The notes under the pieces were generated by a model. It did no database searches. It worked only from the letters and a program-made list of their open reading frames with translations, and had not been told where the DNA came from. A stretch of DNA of 64,000 nt from an uncultured Gammaproteobacteria bacterium (GTDB taxonomy: Bacteria; Patescibacteriota; Microgenomatia; UBA1406; HO2-37-13b): contig CAYPSA010000001.1 of assembly GCA_964413645.1 (NCBI GenBank), positions 72,389 through 136,388 of the forward strand, given 5' to 3'. Below are positions 3,228 through 40,758 of this stretch, piece after piece. Numbering within the stretch: the stretch's first letter is position 1; the number at the start of each line of letters is the position of its first letter. The position numbers and the translations under genes are program-made.

Positions 3228-5135
3228 ATGCATGAAAATATGGGCTCTGTTTATGCTATTCCAACAGGTAAATCAGACCAAAATCCTACAATACGTGGTG
3301 ATTATGATGGCGCCTTAGTAATGACTACAGGTAGTTATATTGATGGTAGTGTGCATAGGTGTCATGATCCCCTCGACATCGCCTTAACAACTGCATTTAC
3401 TTCTTTGAGAGACTATCTCAATTTTCCAGTTCAACCAACCAAAGAGATTGCTGTGTTCGGAAAAGAAGTTAGAAATCGTCCAAGAAAACCAATAGCCATA
3501 CTTCGATCTTCGGGTGAAGCTACATTAAATTCTCGCAGCTTTTATAGAAATGCCGATCCAATTTCCTTCGCGCCAGAAAGTCCTATAAAATTTGGAAGTG
3601 GCATACGACTTGAAGCTATCGTTGATTCGTTGGCTCCACAAGTTGCGGCACTAGAAATGACAGATATGCAGCGAGAACTTCTTCCAGGACACGCAATTAT
3701 TTTTGCTGAACAGACTCGTTTAAGTCCAAGTTCTCATCAGATTAAACAAGTCCGTCGTGTAAGTGCTGATGGATTATCTGTTCGAACACAAAAATATATA
3801 GCAGAGCACGAAATAAGCGATGATGAACTTAACGGACTTGCAGCTAGCCTGCTTCATGACGGCGCGATTTCATTAATCATTAATGGATCAAGTCAAAGAT
3901 ATAATCTTGACAATGTGTATTCGCTCATTAAAGGAAGTTCGAAAAAGAAGCGAGACTCGTTCCCGCAGCTTCATTTCTTTCATGCTCTTTACACCAAGTT
4001 TCTTGATATTGTCGCGGCACGTGTTACGCAGGAACCCACATCAGCGCAAGACATTATTCTTCGTTTGCATGAACAACCTGAACTTGGAATAGAAATTCCG
4101 CGCGAACCATATGATGCGCTTGCTCAAGAAACGTTGGTGGATCATCTCGGGACAACCTTACCTATCGAGGTAATGGCTCGTAAGTTAAAGAATGTTCCGC
4201 CTGCTATTATCGCAATGTCACCCACACTTCAATTATATGAAGTCCTTGTTGCTTCAGCCGGATACACACTTTTTTCACATGAAGAATCTCCCATAGCTGT
4301 TCAGGGTCATGAAGGTGAATTGGCAGGGGATTATATCGCAACAGCTTCAGCTTGGCCTGATTTAGTTGTAGGAGCAGTTAATAAAAGTAGCGAAACGTGG
4401 AGCACGATGATGACATTGGAGCGCGAGTTTTTATTACGAAGAAATCCGCATGTTCAAGACTCACAGGTTGCCGATCATTTAGAGAAAAGGCTAAAAAAAC
4501 TTTTTAGTGGTCATTTGTTAAATTTCCGAGCGATGAAGAATATTGACGCGCACGTATTGCATGCGTTTTTGTCGGGCCTTGCTACTGAAACGCCTGAATC
4601 ACAATTAATTTTATATGAGCGAAAAGCAAAATTGATGGTCGATGAGCAGAATAGTGCTCTTGCTCCTTTTGAGCTTTTTGATGAAAAAACGTCTGGAATA
4701 ATTCCATCAGTAGAGAGAAAATTTAAAGATGGCGCTTCAATTGATATAAAAAATAATGTTCAGCCAGGTATCCGAGACAGTGTTTTTGCAGTAACTCAAA
4801 TTATTCAGCTTTATCATAATTTACGCCAACTTTCATCGTTGAGTACTCAACCGCATCCACGACTTAACTGGAGAAAAGCAATAGCATTGCGTGGTTCAAT
4901 TATTCATATTCCTCTTTTTGAGCAGGCGTCAAAAAATGCTTTTAGGTATGTCCCAGGGAATAAATACGGTATTGAAATGGTCGATTACGCTTCAGGTATT
5001 ACAGATCATGACTTAAGACATGTGAGAGCGCTAGTGGGACAGACAATTGCAGAAAGAACTCAAACACAAGTAAAAGCAATAAGAAAATCTGCTCGTGTGC
5101 GAAGAAATGCGACACCATTGCGAAAAGTAGCATAA
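3228..5135 (+). CDS. Hypothetical protein, 635 aa, no motif recognised, basic C-terminal tail
   Basis: Long uninterrupted ORF with its own extended -10 box (3209-3217); no TM or signal peptide, no P-loop or metal motifs seen. Confidence 0.6.
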   Translation: MHENMGSVYAIPTGKSDQNPTIRGDYDGALVMTTGSYIDGSVHRCHDPLDIALTTAFTSLRDYLNFPVQPTKEIAVFGKEVRNRPRKPIAILRSSGEATLNSRSFYRNADPISFAPESPIKFGSGIRLEAIVDSLAPQVAALEMTDMQRELLPGHAIIFAEQTRLSPSSHQIKQVRRVSADGLSVRTQKYIAEHEISDDELNGLAASLLHDGAISLIINGSSQRYNLDNVYSLIKGSSKKKRDSFPQLHFFHALYTKFLDIVAARVTQEPTSAQDIILRLHEQPELGIEIPREPYDALAQETLVDHLGTTLPIEVMARKLKNVPPAIIAMSPTLQLYEVLVASAGYTLFSHEESPIAVQGHEGELAGDYIATASAWPDLVVGAVNKSSETWSTMMTLEREFLLRRNPHVQDSQVADHLEKRLKKLFSGHLLNFRAMKNIDAHVLHAFLSGLATETPESQLILYERKAKLMVDEQNSALAPFELFDEKTSGIIPSVERKFKDGASIDIKNNVQPGIRDSVFAVTQIIQLYHNLRQLSSLSTQPHPRLNWRKAIALRGSIIHIPLFEQASKNAFRYVPGNKYGIEMVDYASGITDHDLRHVRALVGQTIAERTQTQVKAIRKSARVRRNATPLRKVA

Positions 5136-5167: not shown

Positions 5168-5881
5168 ATGCTCACACTCAAAAACCTGTCTGTTTCCATT
5201 GAATCAAAAAAGATTCTCAAAAACATAAACTACACGTTTGAACCGGGGAAAGTGTATGCAATTATGGGTCCTAATGGATCGGGGAAATCTACATTGGCTT
5301 CTTCGGTTATGGGGCATCCTATTTATTCTGTTGGCAAGAGCTCGAAAATAGTTTTTGAAGGAGAAAATATTACTGAAATGGAGCCGAATGATCGTTCAAA
5401 TAAGGGAATATTTCTCTCATTTCAAACGCCTATGGCTCTTACCGGGGTGACTATCTATCAATTTATGCGCTATGCGCTAACGGGTAAAATGGATGCGCTA
5501 AAAATTCGACAGGGTGTGCAAAAGTTTGCAAAAAAATTACATATTTCAGAAGACCTCTTATCGCGTTCCTTAAACGATGGCTTTTCAGGAGGAGAAAAGA
5601 AAAAAATGGAAGTTTTGCAAGCCGCTCTTTTGGATCCTAAATTAGCATTTTTTGATGAAATTGATACAGGAGTAGACGTAGACGCGTTGCGATCGATTGC
5701 GAAATTTATTCAAGCTATGCGCACCCCTCAAAAAACTTTTGTAATAATTACTCACTACAATAGAATTCTCAAATATTTAAAACCCGATAAAATTATTGTT
5801 CTCAAAAACGGACAAATTGTAAAAGAAGGCACGGCAAAACTTGCTCAAGAGATTGAAAAAAAAGGCTACGATGCTTTTTAA
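5168..5881 (+). CDS. sufC: Fe-S cluster assembly ATPase SufC
   Basis: GPNGSGKST Walker A, FSGGEKKK signature, FFDEIDTG Walker B; start moved from ORF-track 5144 to ATG 5168 because 5153-5158 is a TATAAT box. Confidence 0.95.
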   Translation: MLTLKNLSVSIESKKILKNINYTFEPGKVYAIMGPNGSGKSTLASSVMGHPIYSVGKSSKIVFEGENITEMEPNDRSNKGIFLSFQTPMALTGVTIYQFMRYALTGKMDALKIRQGVQKFAKKLHISEDLLSRSLNDGFSGGEKKKMEVLQAALLDPKLAFFDEIDTGVDVDALRSIAKFIQAMRTPQKTFVIITHYNRILKYLKPDKIIVLKNGQIVKEGTAKLAQEIEKKGYDAF

Positions 5882-5902
5882 TTGTCGCGCAGACTATACA
5901 CT

Positions 5903-6000
5903 GTCATCCTGAGAGAGCACTGTCATTCTGAGCGCAGCGAAGAATCTAGGTGTGAATAGATCGGAGATTCTTCATCCCACTTTGCGGGATTCAGAATGAC
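5903..6000. repeat. Family A hairpin repeats: truncated 5' arm, one plus-strand unit and one inverted unit
   Basis: gtcatcctgagagagca / gtcATTCTGAgcgcagcGAAGAATctaggtgtg / inverted agattcttcatcccactttgcgggattcagaatgac. Confidence 0.9.
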
Positions 6001-6027
6001 AAAAGACGATCAAAATGACATTCATAT

Positions 6028-7434
6028 ATGAAAAAAACCACCCAAAAAGACGACATCGATTTCGACTACAAATATGGCTTTTCAATGCCCGACACGTCTG
6101 TTTTTCAAACAAAACGAGGCATTTCCCCCGAGGTTGTTTTTCAAATTTCTAAAATAAAAAATGAACCTGATTGGATGGCAAAAAAACGCTTAAAAGCCTA
6201 CGAAATTTTTCTTGAAAAAAAAATGCCGCCGTGGGGTGCCGATCTTTCCAAAATAGATTTTGATGATATTGTCTATTTTATTCGAGCTACCGATAAACAA
6301 AAAACTTCATGGGAAGATCTGCCTGCCGAAATTAAAGACACCTATGATCGTATTGGAGTTCCTGAAGCGGAAAAAAAGTTTTTAGCTGGCGTTTCTGCGC
6401 AGTACGAGTCGGAGGTAGTATATGAGAGTGTTAATAAGGAGCTTACTAAACAAGGCGTACTTTTCTGCGACATGGATACTGCTGTTGTAAAGTATCCTGA
6501 AATTGTTAAAGAGTATTTTGGAACATTAATTCCTGCTCGTGATAATAAATTTTCCGCACTCAATACTGCCGTGTGGTCCGGAGGATCATTTGTATATGTT
6601 CCAAAAGGTGTTCATGTAAAATTACCACTTCAAGCTTATTTTCGAATTAATGCAGAACGTTTTGGTCAATTTGAACGAACGCTTATTATCGCGGATGAAG
6701 GTTCAAGCGTTCATTACATCGAAGGTTGTACTGCTCCTATTTACACAACCGACTCCCTTCATTCAGCGGTCGTAGAAATTTTCGTTAAAAAAAATGCACG
6801 AGTTCGCTACACTACCGTTCAAAATTGGAGCAACAATGTTTACAACTTGGTTACCAAACGAGCGTCGGCTGATGAAAATGCAATTATGGAATGGATTGAT
6901 TGTAATATTGGATCAAAAGTTACCATGAAATATCCGTCGGTGTATTTAAAAGGGGAAGGCGCGCGTGGAGAAGTTCTTTCAATTGCCTATGCAGGAGCCG
7001 GCCAACATCAAGATGCGGGGGCCAAAATGTTTCATTTTGCACCAAACACATCAAGTCGAATTGTTTCAAAATCAATTTCAAAAAATGGAGGACGAACTTC
7101 ATATCGAGGTTTAGTTCAAATACAACCAAATGCTACGAATTCATCAGTTTACGTTTCGTGTGATGCGTTACTGCTCGATGAAGATTCCCGTTCCGATACC
7201 TATCCTACGATGAGAATTATGGAAAATGATGTCCAAGTTCAACACGAAGCAACCGTTGAAAAATTAGGTGAAGAAAAATTATTTTACTTAACCAGTCGGG
7301 GTATTACTAAAAATGATGCAGAAGGAATTTTAGTTAATGGATTTATTGAACCCGTAACCCGCGAAATTCCATTGGAATATTCAATTGAATTAAATCGACT
7401 AATGCAGTTAGAAATGAGTGGAAGTGTAGGATAA
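6028..7434 (+). CDS. sufB: Fe-S cluster assembly protein SufB
   Basis: 468 aa; FVYVPKGVHV, ERTLIIADEGSSVHYIEGCTAP typical of SufB. Confidence 0.95.
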   Translation: MKKTTQKDDIDFDYKYGFSMPDTSVFQTKRGISPEVVFQISKIKNEPDWMAKKRLKAYEIFLEKKMPPWGADLSKIDFDDIVYFIRATDKQKTSWEDLPAEIKDTYDRIGVPEAEKKFLAGVSAQYESEVVYESVNKELTKQGVLFCDMDTAVVKYPEIVKEYFGTLIPARDNKFSALNTAVWSGGSFVYVPKGVHVKLPLQAYFRINAERFGQFERTLIIADEGSSVHYIEGCTAPIYTTDSLHSAVVEIFVKKNARVRYTTVQNWSNNVYNLVTKRASADENAIMEWIDCNIGSKVTMKYPSVYLKGEGARGEVLSIAYAGAGQHQDAGAKMFHFAPNTSSRIVSKSISKNGGRTSYRGLVQIQPNATNSSVYVSCDALLLDEDSRSDTYPTMRIMENDVQVQHEATVEKLGEEKLFYLTSRGITKNDAEGILVNGFIEPVTREIPLEYSIELNRLMQLEMSGSVG

Positions 7435-7436
7435 CT

Positions 7437-8033
7437 ATGAAATTCACATACATCACTGAAGGAGAAAAAGGCAAATACTCTGTTACCCAACCAGGGGAGT
7501 CGATTTTTTTTATTTATAATTATTCTGGAGCAGTTGAAATTTCTATTAAATCTCCGAATGCGAAAGTTTACATTTACGGCGTGTATATTGGTAAAAAGAA
7601 CGACAATTTTACCCTTAATACTATTCAACATCACAAAGTTGGCGAGAGTGTTTCGGATTTACTTATTAAGGGAATTTTTTTCGATGAATCTAAATTTCAT
7701 TATGAAGGGTTAATTCGAATCGACAAAAAAGCACAAAAGTCGAATGCGTATCAAAAAAATCAGAACTTAGTAATGTCGAAAGAAGTCTTTGTCGATTCTC
7801 GACCTTACTTGGAGATTTTGGCAAATGATGTTCGGTGCACTCACGGTTCCACAACAGGACAGTTGGACAAAGAGCAATTGTATTTTGCAAAAACTCGGGG
7901 ATTATCAGAAAAGGAGGCTCAAAAAATGCTTCTTGAAGGATTCATTGGCGACATATTCAATAAAATGGAAGAAGTAGGGTTAGAAAAGTCCGTCATCCTG
8001 AGCGTAGCGAAGGATCTAGGTGTGGAGAATTGA
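7437..8033 (+). CDS. sufD: SufD-like Fe-S assembly protein (short, 198 aa)
   Basis: SufB/SufD-family core (VRCTHGSTTGQLDKEQLYFAKTRG); follows sufB by 2 nt; last 13 codons (VILSVAKDLGVEN) are repeat-derived. Confidence 0.8.
   Translation: MKFTYITEGEKGKYSVTQPGESIFFIYNYSGAVEISIKSPNAKVYIYGVYIGKKNDNFTLNTIQHHKVGESVSDLLIKGIFFDESKFHYEGLIRIDKKAQKSNAYQKNQNLVMSKEVFVDSRPYLEILANDVRCTHGSTTGQLDKEQLYFAKTRGLSEKEAQKMLLEGFIGDIFNKMEEVGLEKSVILSVAKDLGVEN
7992..8025 (+). repeat. Family A unit inside the sufD 3' end
   Basis: gtcATCCTGAgcgtagcGAAGGATctaggtgtgg; translated VILSVAKDLGV. Confidence 0.9.
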
Positions 8034-8034
8034 T

Positions 8035-9243
8035 ATGTTCAATACACAACAAACAAAAAAGGATTTCCCAATTTTCACTAAAAACCCTGATCTGGTCTAT
8101 TTAGATTCTACTGCAACTTCACTTAAACCCCGAGTGGTTCTTGATAAACTGAATGAGTACTACACGCAATACTCTTCCAATATTCATCGTGGAATTTACG
8201 ACATTGCCGAAAAAGCCACGGCAGAATATGAATTGGCCCGGCAAAAAGTTGCAGGTTTTATTCACGCTTCACCAGAAGAAGTGATTTTTACATCCGGAAC
8301 TACTGATTCCATCAATCTTCTTGCGTCGAGTTTGGGAGAGGAAGTCGGGGCCGGTGATGAAATTTGTGTAACGATTGCTGATCATCATTCAAATTTTGTT
8401 CCGTGGCAACAACTGGCGCTTAAAAAAGGAGCAACGTTTAAAGCTCTGCCTGTCGAAGACGTCATTCTGAGCGTAGCGAAGAATCTAGGTGTTAGGACCA
8501 AAATTCTGGCCCTTCCCCTCATTTCCAACACCCTCGGTACCATTTTCCCAATTAAAGAAATTGCTCTTCAAGCTCGAAAAATAAATCCTGACATATGTGT
8601 AATTGTAGACGCTGCGCAAAGCGTTCCTCATAGAGCAATCAACGTTCAGAGTCTGGGAGCTGACTTTGTTGCTTTTTCAGGGCATAAAATGGTAGGTCCA
8701 ACAGGTATTGGAGTATTGTGGGGTCGACGGGATATTTTGGATCGTATGCCACCCTATAAATTCGGTGGGGAAATGATCGAATCTGTTTCGGTAGAAAAAA
8801 CAACTTTTAACTCGCTTCCTCATAAGTTTGAAGCAGGGACTCCACCGATAGCTCAGGCCATAGGACTCGGGGCAGCGGTCGACTATTTGCAGAGTGTAGG
8901 GATGGAGAAAATTGAGAAACATGAAAAAGCTCTCACTTCATTTGCTCGACAGGAGCTGGAGAGAGAGTTTGGCGAGAAAATTACCATCTACGGTCCAAGT
9001 GCAGGCGAAGACAGAGGGGGATTGCTTTCATTTACATTCGGAAATTATCATGCACATGATGTTGCTCAAATTCTTTCTGAGGATAATGTCGCTGTTCGAG
9101 CGGGTAACCATTGTACTATGCCATTACATACGGCTCTTGGTGTTGTAGCAACAGTCCGTGCAAGTTTTTATATGTATAATGACGAATCCGACGTTAAAAA
9201 ACTTGTTACCAGTTTACATAAAGTTACCAACCTCTTAGGTTGA
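8035..9243 (+). CDS. sufS: Cysteine desulfurase SufS (class V aminotransferase)
   Basis: FSGHKMVGPTGIG (PLP Lys), RAGNHCTMPLH (catalytic Cys); ATG 8035 preferred to GTG 8020 (after sufD stop, GGAG 7 nt upstream); repeat unit in frame at 8461-8493. Confidence 0.93.
   Translation: MFNTQQTKKDFPIFTKNPDLVYLDSTATSLKPRVVLDKLNEYYTQYSSNIHRGIYDIAEKATAEYELARQKVAGFIHASPEEVIFTSGTTDSINLLASSLGEEVGAGDEICVTIADHHSNFVPWQQLALKKGATFKALPVEDVILSVAKNLGVRTKILALPLISNTLGTIFPIKEIALQARKINPDICVIVDAAQSVPHRAINVQSLGADFVAFSGHKMVGPTGIGVLWGRRDILDRMPPYKFGGEMIESVSVEKTTFNSLPHKFEAGTPPIAQAIGLGAAVDYLQSVGMEKIEKHEKALTSFARQELEREFGEKITIYGPSAGEDRGGLLSFTFGNYHAHDVAQILSEDNVAVRAGNHCTMPLHTALGVVATVRASFYMYNDESDVKKLVTSLHKVTNLLG
8461..8493 (+). 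repeat. Family A unit in frame inside sufS
   Basis: gtcATTCTGAgcgtagcGAAGAATctaggtgtt; translated VILSVAKNLGV. Confidence 0.9.
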
Positions 9244-9271
9244 CAGTGCCTGTTCAACCTCTTAGGTTGCC
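9227..9271. repeat. Twin 15-nt palindrome repeat (family B), copy 2
   Basis: Palindromes CAACCTCTTAGGTTG at 9228-9242 and 9255-9269 with CAGTGC linker; the first supplies the sufS C-terminus NLLG and TGA. Confidence 0.9.
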
Positions 9272-9330
9272 ACCTTTGTCATTCTGAGCGGTACCTTTGT
9301 CATTCTGAGCGGAGCGAAGAATCTCCGTAT
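9272..9330 (+). repeat. Family A: 21-bp tandem duplication of the left end followed by a complete unit
   Basis: acctttgtcattctgagcggt / acctttgtcATTCTGAgcggagcGAAGAATctccgtat. Confidence 0.9.
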
Positions 9331-9340
9331 AACAAAAAAT

Positions 9341-9700
9341 ATGTCATCAATTTACCAAGAAATCATTCTCGATCACTACAAATCCCCGCATAATTACGGT
9401 GATCTTCCCGACGCTTCGTGTGCAATTCACATCGATAACCCTAGTTGTGGTGATAAAATTCACTTAAGCGGCACCATAAAAAACGGCACGCTTACCGATG
9501 TTGCATTTACTGGACAAGGCTGTGCAATTTCAATCGCCTCTTCATCTTTGCTCACCGATTACATAAAAGGTAAAAAAGTTTCCGATTTGAAAAAACTTGA
9601 TACATCAATTATCTTAGAGTTGTTGGGAATCGAACTTTCTCCAAATCGTCTTAAATGTGCGCTGCTTCCCCTTGAAGCACTCTCAAAATTGATCAAGTAG
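9341..9700 (+). CDS. sufU: SufU/IscU-type Fe-S scaffold or sulfur acceptor
   Basis: 119 aa; NPSCGD, GQGCAIS, LKCALLP conserved Cys ligands. Confidence 0.85.
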   Translation: MSSIYQEIILDHYKSPHNYGDLPDASCAIHIDNPSCGDKIHLSGTIKNGTLTDVAFTGQGCAISIASSSLLTDYIKGKKVSDLKKLDTSIILELLGIELSPNRLKCALLPLEALSKLIK

Positions 9701-9803: not shown

Positions 9804-11570
9804 ATGTCTCATTTTCTGTGGAAAATTGGGGGTCAGGCAGGGTTTGGTGTCATGACGACTGGATTGTCATTTTCCAAAATTGCCACAAAAGTTGGCTACC
9901 ATATTTTCGATTGTTTTGAATATCCTTCGCTCATTCGAGGCGGGCATAATACGTATGATGTCATTCTCTCGCCGGAACCTGTGCACGCAATACAGCACGA
10001 CATTAATGTTCTTGTTTGTTTGAATAAAGAAACTTTTGAGCTCCACAAACACCGTCTCACTAAGGATTCAATTGTCATTTACGACGAGAATAGCTTCACG
10101 CCTTCCGAGAGTGGCTATAAGATAATTCATCTTCCTTTTAAAACAATGCTATTTGAAAATAAGGCATCTATGGTTATGGAAAATAATATTGCACTTGGAT
10201 GCTCTTTAGCAGTCCTAGACTGGCCGTATCAGATCCTCGATGATATGATCGAGCAAACATTCGCCGATAAAGGAGCTTCGGTTGTTTCTTTAAATAAAAA
10301 AATCTCTAAACTCGCATATGATTACGTCATAAAAAATCACGGCGATTTCATTATCCACGACTTTCCTGTTCTTAAAAAAACTGAACCAAAAATTGTCCTT
10401 ACTGGAAATGACGCATTTGCATATGGCGCTATTGCTGCCGATTGTCGACTATACGCTGCCTACCCCATGACTCCTTCCTCAACCGTTCTTACCACGCTTG
10501 CAGCGCATGCTCAAAAAACGGGCATGGTTGTGCGTCATGCTGAAGATGAAATATCAGTTATTAATACTGCGCTAGGAGCGAGTACTGCCGGTGTTCGCGC
10601 GGCTTGTGGAACATCGGGCGGAGGATTTGCGCTTATGGTTGAATCAATTTCATTTGCAGGAATTGCAGAAATCCCACTGGTTATTTTTATGAGTCAGCGT
10701 CCGGGACCAGCTACCGGACTGCCCAGTTGGACAGAACAAGGGGATTTGCTGTTTACCGTTCATGCAGGGCACGGGGAATTTCCAAAAATTGTACTAGCTC
10801 CCGGGGACCCATACGAAATGTACGCATTAACATTAAAAGCATTTGATTTAGCCGACTATTATCAAACGCCAGTTATTGTGCTGTCAGATAAACATCTTTC
10901 AGAAAGTAATATGAGTATTAATCACCTCGACCTTAAGCTCCTTAACAGAGCATATTCGCCTGATTCTGGAAAGCTCATTTGGAAAGCTAATCACTATCAA
11001 CGCTATGCCGATGTTCCCGATGGAATTTCCCCCCGCCTGGTTCCTGGATACCCCGGACAGTTTTATCAAGTGAATTCGTATGAGCATACAGCAGATAGCC
11101 ATACTACTGAAGATGCTCAAGAGAGAGTTATCCAAGTTAACAAGAGAAACAGAAAAACACAAACATATTTAGCAAAACATTTTGCTATGCCCGAAATTTT
11201 TGGTGATATAAATAAATCTGAAATTGTTTTTGTTTCATGGGGCAGTAATAAGGGGGCGATTTTGGAAGCACAGCGCATTTTAGCGGGCAAAGGAGAGAAA
11301 ACTGCGTTTATTCATTTCACCCACGTGTTTCCACTTGATGAGAGCAGGGTTGCCGCGCTCTTTATATTAAAGAAGAGATTCATTTTGATTGAAAATAATA
11401 GTCAGGGTCAGTTCGCCAAGCTCCTACGTGAGCAAACGGGTGTACATCTGAAAGAAAAAATTCTCAAGTACAACGGCCGCCAAATCCATGTTGAAGAAAT
11501 TGTTGATTACATTATTCCGGACTCCTCTGTCACTCTGAGCAGAGCGAAGAGTCTAGGTGTTAAACCATGA
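9804..11570 (+). CDS. 2-oxoacid:ferredoxin oxidoreductase, alpha (gamma-alpha fused) subunit
   Basis: 588 aa; GGQAGFGVMT N-terminus, YPMTPSS motif; 4-nt overlap with beta subunit gene; C-terminal 13 aa repeat-derived. Confidence 0.85.
   Translation: MSHFLWKIGGQAGFGVMTTGLSFSKIATKVGYHIFDCFEYPSLIRGGHNTYDVILSPEPVHAIQHDINVLVCLNKETFELHKHRLTKDSIVIYDENSFTPSESGYKIIHLPFKTMLFENKASMVMENNIALGCSLAVLDWPYQILDDMIEQTFADKGASVVSLNKKISKLAYDYVIKNHGDFIIHDFPVLKKTEPKIVLTGNDAFAYGAIAADCRLYAAYPMTPSSTVLTTLAAHAQKTGMVVRHAEDEISVINTALGASTAGVRAACGTSGGGFALMVESISFAGIAEIPLVIFMSQRPGPATGLPSWTEQGDLLFTVHAGHGEFPKIVLAPGDPYEMYALTLKAFDLADYYQTPVIVLSDKHLSESNMSINHLDLKLLNRAYSPDSGKLIWKANHYQRYADVPDGISPRLVPGYPGQFYQVNSYEHTADSHTTEDAQERVIQVNKRNRKTQTYLAKHFAMPEIFGDINKSEIVFVSWGSNKGAILEAQRILAGKGEKTAFIHFTHVFPLDESRVAALFILKKRFILIENNSQGQFAKLLREQTGVHLKEKILKYNGRQIHVEEIVDYIIPDSSVTLSRAKSLGVKP
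11529..11561 (+). repeat. Family A unit inside the 3' end of the oxidoreductase alpha gene
   Basis: gtcACTCTGAgcagagcGAAGAGTctaggtgtt; translated VTLSRAKSLGV. Confidence 0.9.
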
Positions 11571-15805: not shown

Positions 15806-16010
15806 CCCTGAGCTTGTCGAAGGGTCATCCTGAGCGACCCAGAGCATACGCGAGGGGAGTCGAAGGATCCCCGCTATCTGTCATTCTGAGCGCTTTGCCT
15901 GCCGCAGGTAGGTAGCGAAGAATCCCAATTGTGTCGTCGTACTTACGGCGCGAGATATCTGATCCGCCAGCTGGCGGAGAGACCATTTGACCTGCCTGCC
16001 GGCAGGCAGG
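15804..16010 (+). repeat. Repeat hotspot: three family A units with free-standing inner palindromes
   Basis: Units at 15804-15826, 15824-15870 and 15880-15925; hairpin gaTCCGCCagctGGCGGAgaga at 15961-15982; palindrome CCTGCCTGCCGGCAGGCAGG at 15991-16010. Confidence 0.9.
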
Positions 16011-19027: not shown

Positions 19028-19041
19028 CCTTTTTCTTGCGG

Positions 19042-19047
19042 TATAAT
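19042..19047 (+). promoter_or_regulatory. -10 box for lysK
   Basis: TATAAT 6 nt before ATG 19054; within the shared 15-mer GGTATAATACTCCTA. Confidence 0.6.
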
Positions 19048-19053
19048 ACTCCT

Positions 19054-20640
19054 ATGTTCTGGGCTGATCAATTAATACAAAACCTTGATAAAAAGTCTCA
19101 TCATCGTGTTGATGACATGAAAACTCCTTCAGGGCATGCTCATGCTGGGTCGTTACGCGCCATTGCAACACATGGCATTGTGTATGAAGCTATGAAAAAA
19201 GCAGGCTATGACGTTGATTTTACGTATGTAGTAAACGACATGGATCCAATGGATGGACTTCCCGTATATTTAGCTGAAGAAGAATACTCTCAACATATGG
19301 GAAAACCGCTTTTTACCATTCCTGCTCCCGATAAAAAATCTGAAAGTTTTGCTCATCAGTTTGCACACGAATATATAGGCGCATTTAATCACATTGGATT
19401 TACGCCAGAAATCTTGTGGTCTCACGAGTTGTATCAAAGTGGAGTCATGGATACGTATATTCGTCAGGCGCTTGATGGTGTTAAAAAAATCCGAGAAATT
19501 TATAAAAAAGTTGCTGATCAAAATAAACCAGAAGGTTGGTATCCGTTCCAGGTAATTTGTCCGCAATGCGGCAAAGTTGGGTCAAGTTTGGTAACTGATT
19601 GGGATGGAACCCTGGTAACATACGAGTGCAAACCTAATTTGGTAAAGTGGGCAATTGGTTGCGGTGCTGCTGGAACTATTTCTCCGTTTGGAGGAACCGG
19701 TAAACTCATGTGGAAAGTAGACTGGGCTGCGCATTGGGCTCACATTGGTGTAACTGTCGAAGGCGCAGGAAAAGATCATTTTAGCGCAGGAGGAAGTCGA
19801 TATGTTTCGGCTGCAGTGATGCAAGAGGTATTTGAAAAGGAACCTCCTTTTGGTTTTTTGCATGAATTTTTATTAATAGGCGGAGCTAAAATGTCATCTT
19901 CAAAAGGAAATGCAGTAACAGCTGCGGAATTGGTAACACTGCTCCCACCAGCCATCGGGAAATTCTTATTTGTTCGTACAGCGTATCAGCGGGCAATAAA
20001 TTTCGACCCAACGCTTTCCTCAACAATCCCTGATTTGTTCGATGAATATGATCGCTGTGCAAAAGCATTTTTTGAATCCGGAACAGAAACTGATATGGGA
20101 AGAATGTATGAAGCTGCTCAAATCGGGGAGCCCCCGTCCGCCAGCGGGCGGATCGGAAAAATGCACCTTCCTCGCTTCCGACAAATTGCCACGCTCATTC
20201 AAATGCCTTCGGTTGATGTAATTAAGTTCTTTGAAGCGGAAAAGGGGAGTGCACTTACTCAATCTGAACAGGATTTATTGCAAGAACGAACTCACTTTGC
20301 AAGAATTTGGTTGGAAAAGTATGCCGATGAAAAAGATACGTTTGCAATTTCTAAAACGCTTCCTTCGCGCGCGTCTGAATTAGACACCGATCAAAAGCAG
20401 TTCCTTAGCAGAGTGGCGACTGATCTGCTAAGCGAGCACTATTCCGACGGCGAAGCCTTGCAACAAGCAATATTTGAGCTTTCAAAGACTGTTGGACTGC
20501 CCCCAAAAAAGGCATTTCAGGCAATCTATTTGGTTCTCATAAACAAAGATCACGGACCAAAAGCTGGATGGCTATTATACGACGAAATGCAGAGCAATAA
20601 AGACTTCTTAATAGAACGATTTACGAGTGATATCGCCTAA
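19054..20640 (+). CDS. lysK: Lysyl-tRNA synthetase, class I
   Basis: FWADQL N-terminus, HIGH-like PSGHAHAGSLR, KMSSSKG (KMSKS); start moved from 19036 to ATG 19054 (TATAAT at 19042-19047). Confidence 0.88.
   Translation: MFWADQLIQNLDKKSHHRVDDMKTPSGHAHAGSLRAIATHGIVYEAMKKAGYDVDFTYVVNDMDPMDGLPVYLAEEEYSQHMGKPLFTIPAPDKKSESFAHQFAHEYIGAFNHIGFTPEILWSHELYQSGVMDTYIRQALDGVKKIREIYKKVADQNKPEGWYPFQVICPQCGKVGSSLVTDWDGTLVTYECKPNLVKWAIGCGAAGTISPFGGTGKLMWKVDWAAHWAHIGVTVEGAGKDHFSAGGSRYVSAAVMQEVFEKEPPFGFLHEFLLIGGAKMSSSKGNAVTAAELVTLLPPAIGKFLFVRTAYQRAINFDPTLSSTIPDLFDEYDRCAKAFFESGTETDMGRMYEAAQIGEPPSASGRIGKMHLPRFRQIATLIQMPSVDVIKFFEAEKGSALTQSEQDLLQERTHFARIWLEKYADEKDTFAISKTLPSRASELDTDQKQFLSRVATDLLSEHYSDGEALQQAIFELSKTVGLPPKKAFQAIYLVLINKDHGPKAGWLLYDEMQSNKDFLIERFTSDIA
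20123..20155 (+). repeat. GC-rich palindromic patch inside lysK (free-standing inner-hairpin type)
   Basis: cggggagcccccgTCCGCCagcgGGCGGAtcgg; same CCGCC/GGCGG hairpin as 15961, 48231 and 50344. Confidence 0.6.
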
Positions 20641-20661: not shown

Positions 20662-21939
20662 ATGCTTTCTATTGATTTTATCCGCGCCAACAAACAGAAA
20701 GTCGAACTTTGTTCGAAGAATAAAAACCGCCCGGTTGATGTAGATGCATTACTAGCTCTTGATGACACCCGCCGAGAACTTATTGGGAAAGTTCAAAAAC
20801 TCCGTGAAGAAAGAAATTCCCTTGCAAGTGCAGGGTCCGACGAGAGCGCACGGGAGCGCGGTCGAGTAATTAAGGATGAACTTAAGGTATTTGAAACAAA
20901 GCTTACCGATGTCGAAACAAAACTTAATGACCTCCTCTTAACCGTTCCAAATATATACCTTGATGAGGTTCCGGTAGGTACCGACGAATCGGGAAACCAA
21001 GAAATTTCAAAATGGGGAACTATTCCAGAATTTGACTTTACTCCCCTGTCGCATATTGAACTAGGAGAGAAGTTGGATCTAATTGATCTTAAACGAGGAA
21101 CGAAAGTATCGGGTTTTCGTGGCTATTTTCTAAAAAACCAAGCTGCTCAATTGCAAATGGCGCTCACGTTGTATGTTCTGAACAAACTCGTTAACAAAGG
21201 ATATACCCCGCTTCTTGCCCCCGCAGTTGTAAAAAGCTTTACAATGTTTGGAAATGGACAATTTCCGTGGGGAAAAGATGAAGTGTATGCGTTAAATGAT
21301 GACGATGCGTATTTGGCTGGTACTGCAGAAGTTCCAGTAACTGCGTATTTTGCTAATGAAACATTTTCGGAAAGTGACTTGCCCAAGAAGTTCGTCGCAT
21401 TTTCATCGTGCTTTCGCAGGGAAGCTGGCTCATATGGAAAAGATACAAAAGGCTTATACCGAGTTCATGAATTTTTCAAAATTGAACAGGTCATTATTGC
21501 AAAAGCGGATATAGAAGAAGCTAAAAAAATGCATGAAGAACTCCAACGAAATTGTGAAGAAATTCTACAAGAATTAAACCTCCCTTACCATATTTTACTT
21601 ATGTGCACCGGCGACATGGGAGAACCTCAAATGAAAAAGTATGATACTGAAGTCTGGATGCCATCTCGAAACGGGTACGGTGAAACAATGTCAAATTCCA
21701 TAATGGGCGATTTCCAAACACGACGTCTCAATATTAAATATAAAGATGCCCAAGGCAATATGCATTTCACCTATTCTCTAAACAATACTGCAATTGCATT
21801 TCCACGAATTCTGATTCCATTATTAGAAAATAACCAACAAAAAGACGGTTCAATTAAAGTTCCAGAAGTCCTTGTAAAATATACCGGCTTTGAAGTTATA
21901 TCTCCCCGTCATGCTGAGCGAAGCGAAGCATCTCAGTAA
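20662..21939 (+). CDS. serS: Seryl-tRNA synthetase
   Basis: Coiled-coil N-terminus, CFRREAGSYGKDTKGLYRVHEFFKIEQ motif 2; start moved from 20644 to ATG 20662; C-terminal RHAERSEASQ is repeat-derived. Confidence 0.93.
   Translation: MLSIDFIRANKQKVELCSKNKNRPVDVDALLALDDTRRELIGKVQKLREERNSLASAGSDESARERGRVIKDELKVFETKLTDVETKLNDLLLTVPNIYLDEVPVGTDESGNQEISKWGTIPEFDFTPLSHIELGEKLDLIDLKRGTKVSGFRGYFLKNQAAQLQMALTLYVLNKLVNKGYTPLLAPAVVKSFTMFGNGQFPWGKDEVYALNDDDAYLAGTAEVPVTAYFANETFSESDLPKKFVAFSSCFRREAGSYGKDTKGLYRVHEFFKIEQVIIAKADIEEAKKMHEELQRNCEEILQELNLPYHILLMCTGDMGEPQMKKYDTEVWMPSRNGYGETMSNSIMGDFQTRRLNIKYKDAQGNMHFTYSLNNTAIAFPRILIPLLENNQQKDGSIKVPEVLVKYTGFEVISPRHAERSEASQ
21908..21935 (+). repeat. Family A unit forming the serS 3' end
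   Basis: gtcATGCTGAgcgaagcGAAGCATctc; read in the alternative open frame as RHAERSEASQ-stop. Confidence 0.85.
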
Positions 21940-21943
21940 TATT

Positions 21944-24796
21944 ATGTTTAATCCATTCAAATCATTTTTCGACTTTAACAAAAAAGAAATTGATCGACTT
22001 GCAAAGCGAGTCGACGAGATTAATAAACTCGAAGATTCAGTGCGATCTTTAAAAGACGCTGATTTTGCAAAGGAAACAGTAAGGCTTCAAGAACAAATCA
22101 AATCAGGAACATCACTTGATGAGATTTTGCCATACTCTTTTGCACTCGTTCGCGAAGCCGCCAGAAGAGTGCTGGGAACACGCCACTATGATGTGCAACT
22201 TATGGCTGGAATTGCTCTTCATGAAGGTACCGTTGCCGAGCAAAAAACAGGAGAGGGAAAAACGTTATCTGCTACTTCGCCGCTCTATTTAAATGCTTTA
22301 ACTGGAAAAGGAGTTCATTTGGTTACTGTAAACGATTATTTGGCACGGCGTGATGCCGGATGGATGGGGCAGTTGTTTAGTTTCTTAGGTCTTTCTGTTT
22401 CTGCAATTATTTCTGAGCAGTCATTTTTATATGATTCTTCTTTTATCGATTCCCAAGCAACCGATCATCGACTAATTCATTTGCGACCCGTTTCGCGAAA
22501 AGAAGCATATGATGCTGACATAACCTACGGTATTAATTCAGAATTTGGATTCGACTATTTGCGCGACAACATGGCAAACGAAATGACAGGATTGGTACAA
22601 CGAGGATTTCATTACGCAATTATCGACGAGGTTGATTCTGTTTTAATTGACGAAGCTCGAACACCGCATATTATTTCCGCAGCGTATGATAAAGATGTTT
22701 CAAAGTATTATGATTACGCAACCATTGTTTCCAAATTAAAACCGAGCGATTTTACCATCGATGAAAAACAGCGAACCGCTCATTTAACAGAAGCAGGAAT
22801 TGCGACCATCGAAGGAATTTTGAAAGTCGAAAATGTGTACGAGAAAGATTTTGACACAGTATTTCATGTAGAAGCAGCACTTAAAGCCCGAACACTATTT
22901 ACGAAAGATAAAGATTACATCGTAAAAGATGGCGAAGTTATTATAGTCGATGAATTTACTGGTCGACTTTTGTATGGTCGCCGATTTTCTGAAGGATTAC
23001 ATCAGGCAATTGAAGCAAAGGAGCGGGTAGATATTAAACAAGAATCTCGAACGCTTGCCACCGTTTCATTACAAAACTATTTTAGAATGTATGAAAAACT
23101 CGGGGGCATGACTGGAACTGCAGCAACAGAAGCAGAAGAATTTTCAAAGATTTATAAACTTAATGTTATTATTTTCCCAACACATAATAAGGCGCAAAGA
23201 ATAGATCATGCAGATTTGATTTATAAAACCGAACTTGGAAAATTTAACGCAGTTGTTGCGGATGTTGCCGCGCAACACAAAACAGGTCGCCCAGTTTTAA
23301 TTGGAACCACTTCAATCCAAAAGAATGAGCTACTTTCTCAATTACTTAAAAAGAATGGTGTTCCACATACTCTATTGAATGCTAAAAACCATTTAAAAGA
23401 AGCGCAAATTATCTCATCCGCAGGTGAGCGAGGAGCAGTAACTGTTGCAACCAACATGGCTGGTCGAGGAGTCGATATTGTTCTGGGTGGAGAAGCTCCG
23501 AATAAGTATGAACGTCCAGTTGATAACGACGGTGTCATCCTGAGCTCCGCCGCGGGCGGAAGTGAGGGATCCTCGTCATCAAAAAAACAAGTTAAAGAAT
23601 CCGAAAAATACGAAAAGAAGATGAATGAATGGAGAAAGAAACATGATGAAGTTCTTGCACTTGGAGGTTTGTATGTTATCGGAACCGAACGACACGAATC
23701 TCGACGTATCGATAACCAGCTCCGAGGACGATCAGGTCGACAAGGTGACGCCGGAGAAACGCGTTTCTTTGTTTCACTCGAAGACGATTTGATGAGAATA
23801 TTTGGTGGTGAGCAAGTTGCAAAACTCATGAACTTTTTCAATATTCCTGAAGATCAACCATTAGAACATAAAATGGTATCACGAGCGCTCGAACAATCGC
23901 AGGTAAAAGTAGAAGGATTTAACTTTGACATGCGAAAACACTTGGTTGAATACGATGATGTCCTGAATAAACAACGAGAAGTTATTTATAGACTCCGTAA
24001 TCAAATCTTACGATCTGAAAATAAAGAAATTGACAATATCGCGACAAGTCTCTTTGAAGAAGAGATTCAAACGCTGACTAATATGTATGTCTTCCTCGAG
24101 GAAGATGTGATTGAATTTGAAAAACTAGCGCTTGAATTTTCACAAATAATTGGTGGCGATCCAAAGAAATTACAGAGCGAACTTGAGAAATTAGATAAAC
24201 CAGAAATTGCGCAGTTGCTTTCCAAGAAATTGCAAACAAGTTATAAAAAAAAGGAAAAAGACTTGGGAACCGACGTATGGAAGCAGGCAGTTCAAATTGT
24301 GTACCTGTCAACTATTGATAAATATTGGACTGAACATCTAACAGCAATCGACGACTTGCGCGATGGTATTCGTTTCCGCGGATACGCGCAACTTGATCCG
24401 TTAGTAGAGTATAAGAATGAAGCGTACACCATGTTTGAAAAATTACTTTCTGATATTAATTACGATGTATCTCGTCGATTACTTCATATTGAAGTAACGC
24501 AAAATATTCCACAGGTCCAAACACTTGATGAAAGCAAAATAAAATTGTCATCGGCTTCAGCAATCGATCCATTCGCAGCTCAAACCGATCCTCATGCCGG
24601 ACATAATCATGACGATCATGATCATGTCCACGATCATTCAGGTCATGATCATAGCCATGCAGGTCATACCCATACACATACCGTGAGTGCTTCTGCGCAA
24701 TCTACCAAAATCGGTCGTAATGATCCTTGCCCATGTGGAAGTGGATTGAAATACAAGAAGTGCGGCCTCATTAATGCTCCAGAACACAAGAACTAA
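21944..24796 (+). CDS. secA: Preprotein translocase ATPase SecA
   Basis: KTGEGKT, IIDEVDSVLIDEARTP, TNMAGRGVDI, GTERHESRRIDNQLRGRSGRQGD, C-terminal CPCGSGLKYKKC zinc motif; ATG 21944 (MFNPFKSF) preferred to ORF-track 21890, which overlaps serS. Confidence 0.95.
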   Translation: MFNPFKSFFDFNKKEIDRLAKRVDEINKLEDSVRSLKDADFAKETVRLQEQIKSGTSLDEILPYSFALVREAARRVLGTRHYDVQLMAGIALHEGTVAEQKTGEGKTLSATSPLYLNALTGKGVHLVTVNDYLARRDAGWMGQLFSFLGLSVSAIISEQSFLYDSSFIDSQATDHRLIHLRPVSRKEAYDADITYGINSEFGFDYLRDNMANEMTGLVQRGFHYAIIDEVDSVLIDEARTPHIISAAYDKDVSKYYDYATIVSKLKPSDFTIDEKQRTAHLTEAGIATIEGILKVENVYEKDFDTVFHVEAALKARTLFTKDKDYIVKDGEVIIVDEFTGRLLYGRRFSEGLHQAIEAKERVDIKQESRTLATVSLQNYFRMYEKLGGMTGTAATEAEEFSKIYKLNVIIFPTHNKAQRIDHADLIYKTELGKFNAVVADVAAQHKTGRPVLIGTTSIQKNELLSQLLKKNGVPHTLLNAKNHLKEAQIISSAGERGAVTVATNMAGRGVDIVLGGEAPNKYERPVDNDGVILSSAAGGSEGSSSSKKQVKESEKYEKKMNEWRKKHDEVLALGGLYVIGTERHESRRIDNQLRGRSGRQGDAGETRFFVSLEDDLMRIFGGEQVAKLMNFFNIPEDQPLEHKMVSRALEQSQVKVEGFNFDMRKHLVEYDDVLNKQREVIYRLRNQILRSENKEIDNIATSLFEEEIQTLTNMYVFLEEDVIEFEKLALEFSQIIGGDPKKLQSELEKLDKPEIAQLLSKKLQTSYKKKEKDLGTDVWKQAVQIVYLSTIDKYWTEHLTAIDDLRDGIRFRGYAQLDPLVEYKNEAYTMFEKLLSDINYDVSRRLLHIEVTQNIPQVQTLDESKIKLSSASAIDPFAAQTDPHAGHNHDDHDHVHDHSGHDHSHAGHTHTHTVSASAQSTKIGRNDPCPCGSGLKYKKCGLINAPEHKN
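23534..23572 (+). repeat. Family A unit with inner CCGCC/GGCGG hairpin, in frame inside secA
   Basis: gtcATCCTGAgcTCCGCCgcgGGCGGAagtGAGGGATcc; translated VILSSAAGGSEGS. Confidence 0.85.
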
Positions 24797-28612: not shown

Positions 28613-28699
28613 GTCATTCTGAGAGAGCGTAGCGATCGAAGAATCTCGGTGTGGATAACACCTAGATCCTTCATCCCGCTTTGCGGGATTCAGGATGAC
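28613..28699. repeat. Family A full-size element (two inverted units) between eno and the exonuclease gene
   Basis: gtcATTCTGAgagagcgtagcgatcGAAGAATctcggtgtgg...gatccttcatcccgctttgcgggattcaggatgac. Confidence 0.9.
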
Positions 28700-31544: not shown

Positions 31545-31594
31545 GTCATTCTGAGTGAAGTCGAGGAGTCATTCTGAGCGGAGCGAAGAATCTC
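31545..31594 (+). repeat. Two tandem family A units upstream of tsaC-tsaE
   Basis: gtcattctgagtgaagtcgaggagtc (degenerate, G.T pairs) and gtcATTCTGAgcggagcGAAGAATctc. Confidence 0.85.
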
Positions 31595-31602
31595 AATTAC
31601 TT

Positions 31603-32667
31603 ATGAAAATAATTTCAAAAAAAGATGGATCGCAAAAGGAGTTGATCGAAGAAATAAAAGCGGTCATTCTGGCCGGTGGACTTGTCGTATTACCATCGGA
31701 TACCGTGTATGGTTTATGCGTTGATGCGCGATCAAAATCTGCGGTAGAAAAGCTAATCTCATTTAAACGACGACCTGCCGGAAAGCCGATTTCAGTATTT
31801 GTCGGGAGCGTAGATCGAGCTCATAAGTATATTGCTCTCAATAAGAGTCAAAACGCTCTCTTAGATCAACTGGCTCCCGGACCATATACATTCGTTTTAC
31901 CCTCAAAAGGAGCGTTGCGCCCGGAACTTGAATCTGAACAAGGAAACTTAGGTATTCGTATTCCTGATAATGCATTTATTAATGAGCTCATTGATTCTCT
32001 CGATTTTCCCATAACCGCAACATCTGCAAACCTTGCCGGTGCGCATCCTCATTACTCTGTCGAGTCACTTTTGCAGAGTCTTTCAGATAAAAAGAAGCAA
32101 GAAATTGACCTCATTGTCGATGCAGGTAAACTTCCATATAACAAGCCCTCTACTGTTCTTGACCTAAGTCAAGAAACCGTTGCGGTTTTACGTGCTGGTG
32201 ATGATCAAATAACAGAGACACACACCTCTACATCCGCTACACAGACTGCTGCAATTGGGAAAAATATTCTCACTCAATTAAAGGAAAAAGCTTTCGACAA
32301 GCCTGCCATTATTATTCTCCAAGGAGAGCTTGGGGCAGGTAAAACGACACTCATTAAGGCAATCGGAGAAGAACTCGGAATAACCAACATTGTCTCTCCT
32401 ACCTATGTCGTGTGTTACGAGTATCCTACGACTGATGAGCATTTCAAGCTCTTTCATCACTGTGATTTTTACAATATAAAAGAAGGCGATGAGCTTAATT
32501 TTCTAGGAATTGACCAAATGCTCAAACCCAACACGCTCGTTGCAATAGAATGGGGCGAAAAAAGCGGACCAATTTTTGACATGCTAACACAAAAAGCACA
32601 AGTCGTTGTTGTCTCGATGAGTTATGTAACGCAAGATTGCCGAAAAATCGACATTAATTACCTATAA
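31603..32667 (+). CDS. Fusion of TsaC/YrdC (threonylcarbamoyl-AMP synthase) and TsaE (t6A ATPase)
   Basis: N-terminal LPSDTVYGLCVDA, KRRPAGKPISVFV, TSANLAG; C-terminal LQGELGAGKTTLIK, SPTYVV, HCDFYNI; ATG 31603 preferred to 31555, which reads through repeat units. Confidence 0.8.
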   Translation: MKIISKKDGSQKELIEEIKAVILAGGLVVLPSDTVYGLCVDARSKSAVEKLISFKRRPAGKPISVFVGSVDRAHKYIALNKSQNALLDQLAPGPYTFVLPSKGALRPELESEQGNLGIRIPDNAFINELIDSLDFPITATSANLAGAHPHYSVESLLQSLSDKKKQEIDLIVDAGKLPYNKPSTVLDLSQETVAVLRAGDDQITETHTSTSATQTAAIGKNILTQLKEKAFDKPAIIILQGELGAGKTTLIKAIGEELGITNIVSPTYVVCYEYPTTDEHFKLFHHCDFYNIKEGDELNFLGIDQMLKPNTLVAIEWGEKSGPIFDMLTQKAQVVVVSMSYVTQDCRKIDINYL

Positions 32668-32668
32668 T

Positions 32669-32741
32669 GTCATTCTGAACGAAGTGAAGAATCTGGGTGC
32701 TAGGTTCTAGTATCGAGATCCTTCGTTTCACTCAGGATGAC
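32669..32741. repeat. Family A full-size element (two inverted units) between tsaC-tsaE and tsaD
   Basis: gtcATTCTGAacgaagtGAAGAATctgggtgc...gatccttcgtttcactcaggatgac. Confidence 0.9.
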
Positions 32742-33771: not shown

Positions 33772-33846
33772 ACCCTGAGCGCAGTCGAAGGGTCATCCTG
33801 AGGGAGAGATCCGCCCGCTGGTGGAGACCGAAGGATCTAGGTGTTA
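33771..33846 (+). repeat. Two tandem family A units downstream of tsaD
   Basis: gACCCTGAgcgcagtcGAAGGGTc and gtcATCCTGAgggagagatccgcccgctggtggagaccGAAGGATctaggtgtt; same pairing of unit types as at 15804-15870. Confidence 0.9.
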
Positions 33847-40660: not shown

Positions 40661-40758
40661 GTCATTCTGAGCGCCCTGCCTGCCGGCAGGCAGGTAGCGA
40701 AGAATCTCGGTGTGATTAACACCCAGATTCTTCAGTCGCTTTGCTCCTTAAGAGTGAC
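40661..40758. repeat. Family A full-size element with a 20-nt palindrome plugged into the core
   Basis: gtcATTCTGAgcgcCCTGCCTGCCGGCAGGCAGGtagcGAAGAATctcggtgtg...agattcttcagtcgctttgctccttaagagtgac. Confidence 0.9.

Follow-up and report, generated by a model that had tools for sequence, protein, structure and literature searches.

The window analysed here is the whole 64,000-nt stretch at positions 72,389-136,388 of contig CAYPSA010000001.1 (GCA_964413645.1), and the element in question is a 33-nt palindromic repeat unit that lies in frame inside sufS, the gene for a cysteine desulfurase. The genomic neighbours of sufS are sufC, sufB, a short SufBD-core gene (referred to as sufD) and a NifU_N gene (sufU). 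The two features at the centre of the analysis are:

8035-9243, plus strand: sufS, type II cysteine desulfurase of 402 aa, likely start ATG at 8035, matching its orthologues.
8461-8493, plus strand: repeat unit inside sufS, with tag C8460-GTC, hairpin core 8464-8484 and tail CTAGGTGTT, encoding V143-V153.

The presence of a repeat-derived, in-frame segment in SufS is confirmed. The 33-mer GTCATTCTGAGCGTAGCGAAGAATCTAGGTGTT has only two other matches in the window at ≤3 mismatches, one at 5922-5954 (two mismatches, 31/33) and one at 7992-8024 (three mismatches, 30/33), and at the same threshold 100 dinucleotide-preserving shuffles returned none, with 0 expected by chance. The original prediction had called the unit an exact repeat; it is a repeat, but no second identical 33-mer exists, and the copy in the sufD tail ends at 8024 rather than at 8025 as first reported. 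The 13-nt head of the unit, GTCATTCTGAGCG, has 21 matches in the window (≤2 mismatches) against 1.13 expected, a number that no shuffle reached. As proposed, the unit is read in the open-reading frame 8035-9243 as VILSVAKNLGV (residues 143-153), flanked by FKALPVED and RTKILALPLISNTLG; the stop-free frames of this copy are +1, +3 and -2.

The protein that carries the segment is recognisable as SufS by its pyridoxal phosphate (PLP) lysine, catalytic cysteine loop, class V aminotransferase fold and position in a suf operon with SufU. Its best sequence match in the Protein Data Bank is Bacillus subtilis SufS (E 6.5e-115), and an AlphaFold2 model of the window protein, with a predicted local distance difference test score (pLDDT) of 93.5, superimposes on the B. 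subtilis enzyme with a TM-score of 0.95 and a root-mean-square deviation of 1.7 Å. The catalytic motifs are intact, as had been claimed: H117/H118, H217-K218 (the PLP lysine) and the catalytic C360 all occupy invariant columns in an alignment of 118 homologues. A close homologue (P0002) carries the label Microgenomates group.

Aligned with B. subtilis SufS, the unit peptide falls opposite the segment tisledvretvtsn, where the window protein is four residues shorter, and the model places a helix at residues 140-150 (pLDDT ~85 at residues 141-150), a turn and then a strand at 155-161, the helix lying where B. subtilis SufS has its native helix sledvretv. As modelled, the unit stands in for a native helix between two large-domain strands. 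The suggestion that the segment replaces or extends a variable loop preceding a conserved strand therefore holds in part: replacement is borne out whilst extension is not, as the window protein is shorter here than B. subtilis SufS and, with 20 residues, shorter than the median of 27.5 in 106 other Patescibacteria SufS, and the region is indeed variable (17-63 residues in the same proteins), but the segment is modelled as a helix plus turn leading into the strand, not as a loop. Conservation of the segment in genomes free of the repeat family, which would have marked it as ordinary SufS sequence, was not found: the pattern VILSxxKxL is absent from every homologue outside the close clade among the 106 Patescibacteria proteins, and in one syntenic locus (L008), 15 kb long and entirely without units, SufS carries the unrelated segment VLSTPLIQSVTEH. 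The site is permissive, because of its wide length range and because the orthologue P0005, with an insert 14 residues longer, still models well (pLDDT 90.4, only residues 145-157 below 50). A reading of the segment as an intron or intein was ruled out by its 33-nt size and by the model fitting it as a helix.

Seven syntenic loci (L001, L003 and L005-L009), drawn from independent assemblies in ENA, NCBI and Logan, were compared with the window, and the strain comparison that had been proposed revealed four unit types and a unit-free state at the same codon site:

Window, L009 and L005: the basic unit, GTCATYCTGAGYGNRRCGAAGRATCTAGGTGTT.
L001: a degenerate head plus GTCATTTCGAGCGTTAGCGAGAAATCTCGG.
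L003: GTCATCCCGAACTTGTTTCGGGATCTC together with two heads that repeat every 21 nt.
L006: GTCATTCTGATCCGCCAGCTGGCGGAGAAGGATCTC.
L007 and L008: no recognisable unit.

The non-basic types recur elsewhere in their own locus, in L001 at 7968 (minus strand, with the same CTCGGATA tail), in L003 at 8596 and 8651 (the latter on the minus strand) and in L006 at 16628. A neighbour-joining tree of sufS built without the segment has the form (L008,(L007,((L009,L005),((L006,L003),(window,L001))))), so that the basic type occurs in both subclades; it would therefore be ancestral to the six unit-bearing genomes and would have been replaced no fewer than three times, the frame being kept on each occasion. Whatever the topology, three changes or more are needed to account for four types in six genomes. 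The differences between types, which comprise inserted hairpins and new tails, are beyond the reach of point mutation. Turnover is also seen at two other genes of the locus: orthologous copies of the SufD-tail unit are present in L001, L003, L005, L006, L007 and L009, in two fully compensated alleles, ...ATCCTGAGCGTAGCGAAGGAT... and ...ATTCCGAACGAAGTGAGGAAT..., and the alpha subunit of a 2-oxoacid:ferredoxin oxidoreductase ends in three different unit-made C-terminal extensions among the loci, with none in L008, where the protein ends ...NYVK*. A decayed unit in the SufD tail of L008 was considered and dropped, its alignment score (~1) being unconvincing.

The SufS copy is one of ~18 units that, with five partial heads, make up a curated list for the 64-kb window. 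The others are distributed as follows:

5903-6019, sufC-sufB spacer: partial head at 5903-5915, dimer at 5922-6000 (plus-strand arm simple, minus-strand arm with a ATCCCGCAAAGTGGGAT hairpin), partial head at 6007-6019 (minus strand).
7992-8024, plus strand: single unit that supplies the final 14 codons of sufD, the short SufBD-core gene, as an in-frame tail, SVILSVAKDLGVEN*.
9278-9324, plus strand, sufS-sufU spacer: 13-nt partial head, 8 nt of filler and a full unit.
11529-11561, plus strand: single unit that encodes the C-terminal extension of oxidoreductase alpha, SVTLSRAKSLGVKP*.
15824-15923, plus strand: two units with long internal hairpins, 3′ of a DsbA-like gene.
21908-21933, plus strand: single unit forming the tail of seryl-tRNA synthetase (SerRS), SPRHAERSEASQ*, read in frame +3 (HAERSEAS).
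23534-23572, plus strand: single unit carrying an internal hairpin, read in frame within secA as VILSSAAGGSEGSS.
28613-28699: head-to-head dimer between the genes for enolase and a 5′-3′ exonuclease.
31545-31593, plus strand: partial head plus full unit, 5′ of a Sua5/TsaE fusion gene.
32669-32741: head-to-head dimer forming the whole 69-nt spacer between the Sua5/TsaE fusion and tsaD.
33792-33836, plus strand: single unit with a long internal hairpin, 3′ of tsaD.
40661-40735: dimer between two glycosyltransferase genes, the second arm degenerate.
50313-50366, plus strand: partial head plus unit (at 50334, with a TCCGCCATCTGGCGGA hairpin) in a minus-strand family 2 glycosyltransferase (GT2) gene.

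Six of these units are genic, three of them internal (sufS, secA and GT2) and three forming C-terminal tails (SufD, oxidoreductase alpha and SerRS); four of the copies use frame +1, one uses +3 and one an antisense frame. The secA unit falls in a 53-residue stretch that is missing from Thermotoga maritima SecA, and the GT2 copy is read antisense in frame as EIPLRQMADRND directly after LNSDTE, where the Pfam Glycos_transf_2 match ends. Units also supply gene signals: the start ATG of tsaD at 32737 lies within the inverted repeat tag ATGAC, and the unit tail AGGTG(TGGAG) stands 9-18 nt 5′ of the sufS and oxidoreductase-beta start codons (8017-8034 and 11553-11569), where it may act as a ribosome-binding site.

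Three further observations concern genes of the window in their own right. The open-reading frame at 31600-32667, beside tsaD, holds Sua5/YciO/YrdC (TsaC-like) and TsaE domains together and appears to be a fusion of two components of the t6A pathway. A class I lysyl-tRNA synthetase is encoded at 19036-20640 (tRNA-synt_1f, E 3e-83), the usual bacterial type being class II. Lastly, a 635-aa open-reading frame at 3228-5135 has no Pfam match; it is found at the same position in L001 and L006 and is absent between the aldolase gene and sufC in L003.

All units share one plan: an unpaired tag (T/C)GTC, a 5′ arm ATTCY, GA, a centre, GA, a 3′ arm RGAAT and a tail C(T)N, often CTAGGTGT, the centre being a GCGNAGC mini-hairpin, though many copies have a longer hairpin there, for instance TCCGCCAGCTGGCGGA. 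Across the 18 window units the tag is TGTC in nine, CGTC in three (the SufS copy among them), GGTC in four and AGTC in two. Units stand singly or as inverted pairs that fill a spacer, and the four or five head-to-head dimers of the window have the tags outside in every case. The stem spans nine positions, two of which are G.A/A.G in the main type and fully paired in the L003 variant ATCCCGAA/TTCGGGAT, and the loop of the main type is a 3-nt GNA, with some variants having a 4-5-nt loop or a second hairpin. Covariation among 20 distinct units of the clade supports the stem: 97.1% of cells pair, both sides change in 6/7 pairs, and the score was reached by 0/500 shuffles, whilst controls with the partner slid along paired in only 17-54% of cells; A4-T24 is paired in 20/20 units and T5-A23 in 19/20. 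The dimer at 5920-6003 folds as one long hairpin at -18 kcal/mol (z -4.79), with 0/200 shuffles as good. The 33 nt in SufS are one solo arm (monomer), including the first spacer bases, of this dispersed palindromic repeat family. No Rfam family covered the units, either across the whole window at gathering thresholds or in 5850-9400 at E ≤ 10.

Two regularities of placement were noted. All 11 single units of the window are on the plus strand, including the one inside the minus-strand GT2 gene (two-sided binomial p ~0.001); GC skew, which tracks gene orientation, was too noisy to show a link between this bias and replication. Secondly, partial 13-nt heads (GTCATYCYGARCG) followed by 6-10 nt of filler stand directly 5′ of full units, with a period of 19-23 nt, at 5903, 9278, 31545 and 50313 in the window, at 7759-7800 in L003 and in four loci from several phyla (L055, L091, L097 and L109); in the L003 SufS gene this head stutter is in frame at its 21-nt period. 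The partial heads may mark a cut site in the loop.

Beyond the clade, a sequence scan found the exact 25-mer core pattern GTCATYCTGAGCGNAGCGAAGRATC in at least 120 loci. Going by record titles, the listed matches come from about 20 phylum-level groups, including Nitrospirota, Chloroflexota, Acidobacteriota, Bacteroidota, Bacillota, Planctomycetota and Verrucomicrobiota, and also Omnitrophota, Gemmatimonadota, Alphaproteobacteria, Desulfovibrio, Fibrobacter, Saccharibacteria and Gracilibacteria. Among the matches listed, positions 6 and 22 form Watson-Crick pairs in 146/151 copies (per-locus Fisher p = 2e-30), T precedes the unit in 124/151 and C in 17/151, the variable base of the GNA loop is C in 61, A in 52, T in 25 and G in 13, the commonest triplets after ATC are TCA (26), TCT (20) and TCG (14), and an inverted head lies within 160 nt of 78/145 units. 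At positions 6/22 the listed copies show one G-U against four A-C mismatches, and the clade units one UG in 140 cells; since G-U is not favoured over A-C, a DNA-level constraint fits better than an RNA-level one. Internal in-frame units were also sought in the 120 listed loci, and the ten open frames spanning a unit were rejected, as they look like spurious high-GC open-reading frames.

The closest described relatives are the CGTC-tagged repetitive extragenic palindromes (REPs), defined by Di Nocera, De Gregorio and Rocco (2013, BMC Genomics 14:522, PMC3733652). These have the tag CGTC, often TGTC, an 8-9-bp stem starting with A-T pairs, a 4-5-nt loop and a 3-nt unpaired tail of consensus CCA; they form mostly head-to-head dimers (tags outside) with 20-100-nt spacers, occur inside open-reading frames where they encode ~8-9 residues, have no dedicated transposase and were described from five phyla in four families (PMC3733652). 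Neisseria dRS3 and the Rickettsia palindromic elements RPE-4 and RPE-6 belong to the same CGTC/TGTC superfamily, and the intragenic peptides given in the supplement are VIPAKAGI, SFPRKRES and CHSRRSGNP, with VIPWLDHGI and VIPAKAGI for RPE-4/-6 (PMC3733652). The window units resemble these REPs in their unpaired (C/T)GTC tag, ~9-position stem starting A-T, T-A and short unpaired tail, in being mostly tag-outside dimers with 20-100-nt spacers near or overlapping gene ends, in occurring inside open-reading frames as stretches of ~8-9 residues, and in the correspondence of three reading frames, here VILSxAKxL, SF*A.. and HSERSEES. They differ in the main type, which has tandem G.A mismatches and a 3-nt GNA loop (the GCGNAGC mini-hairpin) where the REPs have a fully paired 8-9-bp stem with a 4-5-nt loop, in the extra internal hairpin of many copies, in their VILSxAKxL/GAGCGNAGCGAAG type, which is not in the PMC3733652 supplement, and in range, the record titles naming about 20 phylum-level groups rather than five phyla, with GIY-YIG nuclease genes bracketed by units elsewhere, where PMC3733652 describes no enzyme for the REPs. 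By architecture we class the unit as a variant of the CGTC/TGTC superfamily, or a sister type to it, outside the four described families, because tag, A-T stem start and head-to-head dimers agree whilst the GNA loop, G.A mismatches and CTN tail depart. Searches of the open-access literature for the unit sequences and peptides returned only irrelevant primer matches.

In their intragenic habit the units recall the Rickettsia palindromic elements, which insert into protein-coding genes without breaking the reading frame (Ogata et al. 2000/2002, reviewed in PMC10969869). In both cases palindromic units lie in frame, at high intragenic frequency (here three internal copies and three tails of ~18 units), in unrelated housekeeping genes of a small, compact genome, and the products are predicted to keep their fold and function (SufS, SecA and GT2). 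RPE-1 is a Rickettsia-specific element of ~100-150 bp whilst SufS carries a 33-nt monomer belonging to a many-phyla family, and the repeated overwriting of one codon site by different variants, seen in the window clade, is not described for RPEs in the literature consulted. The units are not RPE-1 to RPE-10: their host is of the Microgenomates group and, compared by peptides, their types differ from RPE-4/-6.

The best explanation, and one in which we have considerable confidence, is that the segment in SufS is a solo unit of a selfish hairpin repeat and is tolerated there; it would persist because one of its open frames gives a helix-compatible peptide where the protein is permissive, and would from time to time be overwritten by other copies. 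The units would have filled the intergenic spacers of a compact Microgenomates genome and entered permissive parts of its genes. In sufS the unit would have settled in a length-variable, putative surface region, where it is read in a stop-free frame; as its helix-compatible peptide stands in for the native helix, the enzyme is predicted to stay functional. The unit would then be a presumably neutral, tolerated passenger rather than a selected protein module. Since the common ancestor of the close clade, other family variants of the same genome would have taken the place of the resident unit several times, probably through short-tract gene conversion or re-insertion at the unit itself, with only in-frame, stop-free outcomes surviving.

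A possible source of such overwriting lies in GIY-YIG nuclease genes bracketed by units in other genomes. Three GIY-YIG open-reading frames (PF01541, ~93-109 aa) were found among the listed pan-bacterial loci, every one between inverted units:

L030, 6147-6660: Gracilibacteria.
L086, 4083-4533: Hymenobacter.
L123, 3313-3710: Chloroflexota; AAGGTGG, equivalent to the unit tail AGGTG(TGGAG), precedes the GIY-YIG start codon.

A metagenome scan with these three proteins gave 80 further loci (L130-L209), picked by protein similarity alone, of which 55/73 have an inward-facing head within 250 nt upstream of the nuclease gene, 54/71 have one within that distance downstream and 41/64 are flanked in this way on both sides, against ~4.5% expected per side from the background beyond 400 nt (0.36 heads per kb, both strands). 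The cassettes span 362-650 nt from head to head, and a cassette's own left and right ends are more alike than the ends of other cassettes, both within the unit (p = 1e-6) and beyond it (p = 2e-4). The encoded proteins (~95 aa) consist of the catalytic domain alone, with no recognisable DNA-binding domain. The relation of cassette to unit could be that of an autonomous element to its non-autonomous derivatives or, equally, that of a homing gene targeting dimer spacers, and we infer either spread by, or targeting by, the bracketed genes.

With REPIN/RAYT systems, in which REP doublets are associated with a tyrosine transposase (Bertels and Rainey 2011, PMC3116915; Nunvar et al. 2010, PMC2817692), the units share hairpins with an unpaired tetranucleotide tag, inverted doublets that fold as one long hairpin, singlets that look like doublet remnants and an enzyme gene flanked by repeats (here GIY-YIG, outside the window); the tag is (T/C)GTC instead of GTAG, and the enzyme between the units elsewhere is a ~95-aa GIY-YIG nuclease rather than an HUH tyrosine transposase. 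With free-standing GIY-YIG homing endonuclease genes the cassettes share a small PF01541 open-reading frame as a compact selfish element, and copying by break and repair would explain both the overwriting of units and their spread across phyla; unlike those genes, the unit-bracketed ones encode the catalytic domain alone and are bounded, transposon-like, by matched inverted repeats. The small nuclease is a candidate for the enzyme that mobilises these repeats, a class described as lacking one. We tentatively propose, as a possibility that falls somewhat short of probable, that the (T/C)GTC-tagged GAGCGNAGCGAAG family is the non-autonomous partner or homing target of this many-phyla cassette with its matched inverted units, and that nuclease-triggered repair from ectopic copies keeps overwriting the resident units. 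No paper linking GIY-YIG genes to REP-type repeats was found in the open-access literature, which does not by itself establish the link as novel.

Several observations weigh against these interpretations. The neighbour-joining tree on which the ancestral type was placed has no support values, and the ancestral state is uncertain because the unit-less segment of L007 and L008 also differs from deeper outgroups. No pair of empty and filled alleles with identical flanks was present among the loci compared, and the primary event may have been an insertion with later deletion, or conversion of a similar native sequence. The monomer has a nearest-neighbour folding energy of only -1.9 kcal/mol (z +0.3), and monomers in general fold no better than shuffles; the model may miss the stability of GCGNAGC mini-hairpins, which are reported to be stable in PMC13037366, and the case for the monomer hairpin is made from covariation together with that reported stability, energy not being used as evidence. 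The REP affiliation is strained by a 3-nt loop where CGTC REPs have 4-5 nt and by a CTN tail in place of CCA. As for the enzyme, no GIY-YIG gene was detected in the window or the eight orthologous loci (Pfam on 48 window open-reading frames; custom GIY-YIG hidden Markov model on the window and L001-L009), nor any transposase or RAYT gene among the same 48 frames scanned with Pfam (no Y1_Tnp match) or in the orthologous loci, and any link from the window units to a nuclease would be one of family resemblance alone.

Of the alternatives to a tolerated selfish unit, the one that survives best, though we consider it unlikely, is that selection maintains the units in the suf operon as cis-acting RNA or DNA elements, serving for example mRNA processing, stability or translational coupling, and that the copy in sufS is kept for regulation. 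Units do stand in sense orientation at each operon junction, in the sufC-sufB and sufS-sufU spacers, in the sufD tail just ahead of the sufS start and within sufS itself, the hairpin is kept by compensatory changes even in coding DNA, and the AGGTG tail stands ahead of two start codons. They also occur, however, beside or inside unrelated genes of the window and in at least 120 genomes of many phyla, the copy in sufS is swapped for very different variants or absent in close relatives, the lack of any G-U enrichment over A-C mismatches does not favour an RNA-level constraint, and Rfam offers no match.

Still less probable is that VILSVAKNLGV is a selected protein module, for instance one tuning the SufS-SufU interaction, and that its recruitment from the repeat was adaptive. 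The model gives the peptide as helical with moderate to high confidence, and the pattern VILS(V/A)(A/T)K(N/D)L(G/S)V is kept in six sequences at 82-90% identity, yet orthologues that are 87% identical carry the unrelated peptides VIANAHVISSVSE and VILIRQLAEKDLSP or a 25-residue insert predicted to be disordered, peptides of the same type also form meaningless C-terminal tails on SufD and the oxidoreductase, and the region is hypervariable in length across the phylum. That the segment is native SufS sequence resembling the repeat by chance or serving as its source, or else an assembly artefact, is scarcely credible: some other SufS proteins do have native segments of loosely similar hydrophobic pattern (e.g. 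GYLLKNINRVVT), but the near-identity is to copies described as non-coding, the unit recurs at the same site in independent ENA, NCBI and Logan assemblies and is absent from outgroups, and the family extends far beyond the SufS context.

Taken as a tolerated unit of a selfish hairpin repeat, the SufS segment implies that in-frame colonisation of essential genes by palindromic repeats, known classically from Rickettsia, also occurs in a genome of the candidate phyla radiation (Patescibacteria), which bears on the tolerance of selfish DNA by reduced genomes. For annotation, it implies that such repeats supply spurious tails, start codons and putative ribosome-binding sites. The four repeat variants and the unit-free state at a single codon position amount to a natural experiment, which could be used to test how far a putative surface helix of a PLP enzyme can vary. 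The near-identical core across many phyla, together with the bracketed GIY-YIG genes, addresses a question left open in the literature, namely what mobilises CGTC-type REPs. If the tentative link to the nuclease is true, it would provide the first candidate mobilising enzyme for these repeats, and units in essential genes such as sufS and secA would become self-renewing, hypervariable segments of the putative protein surface.

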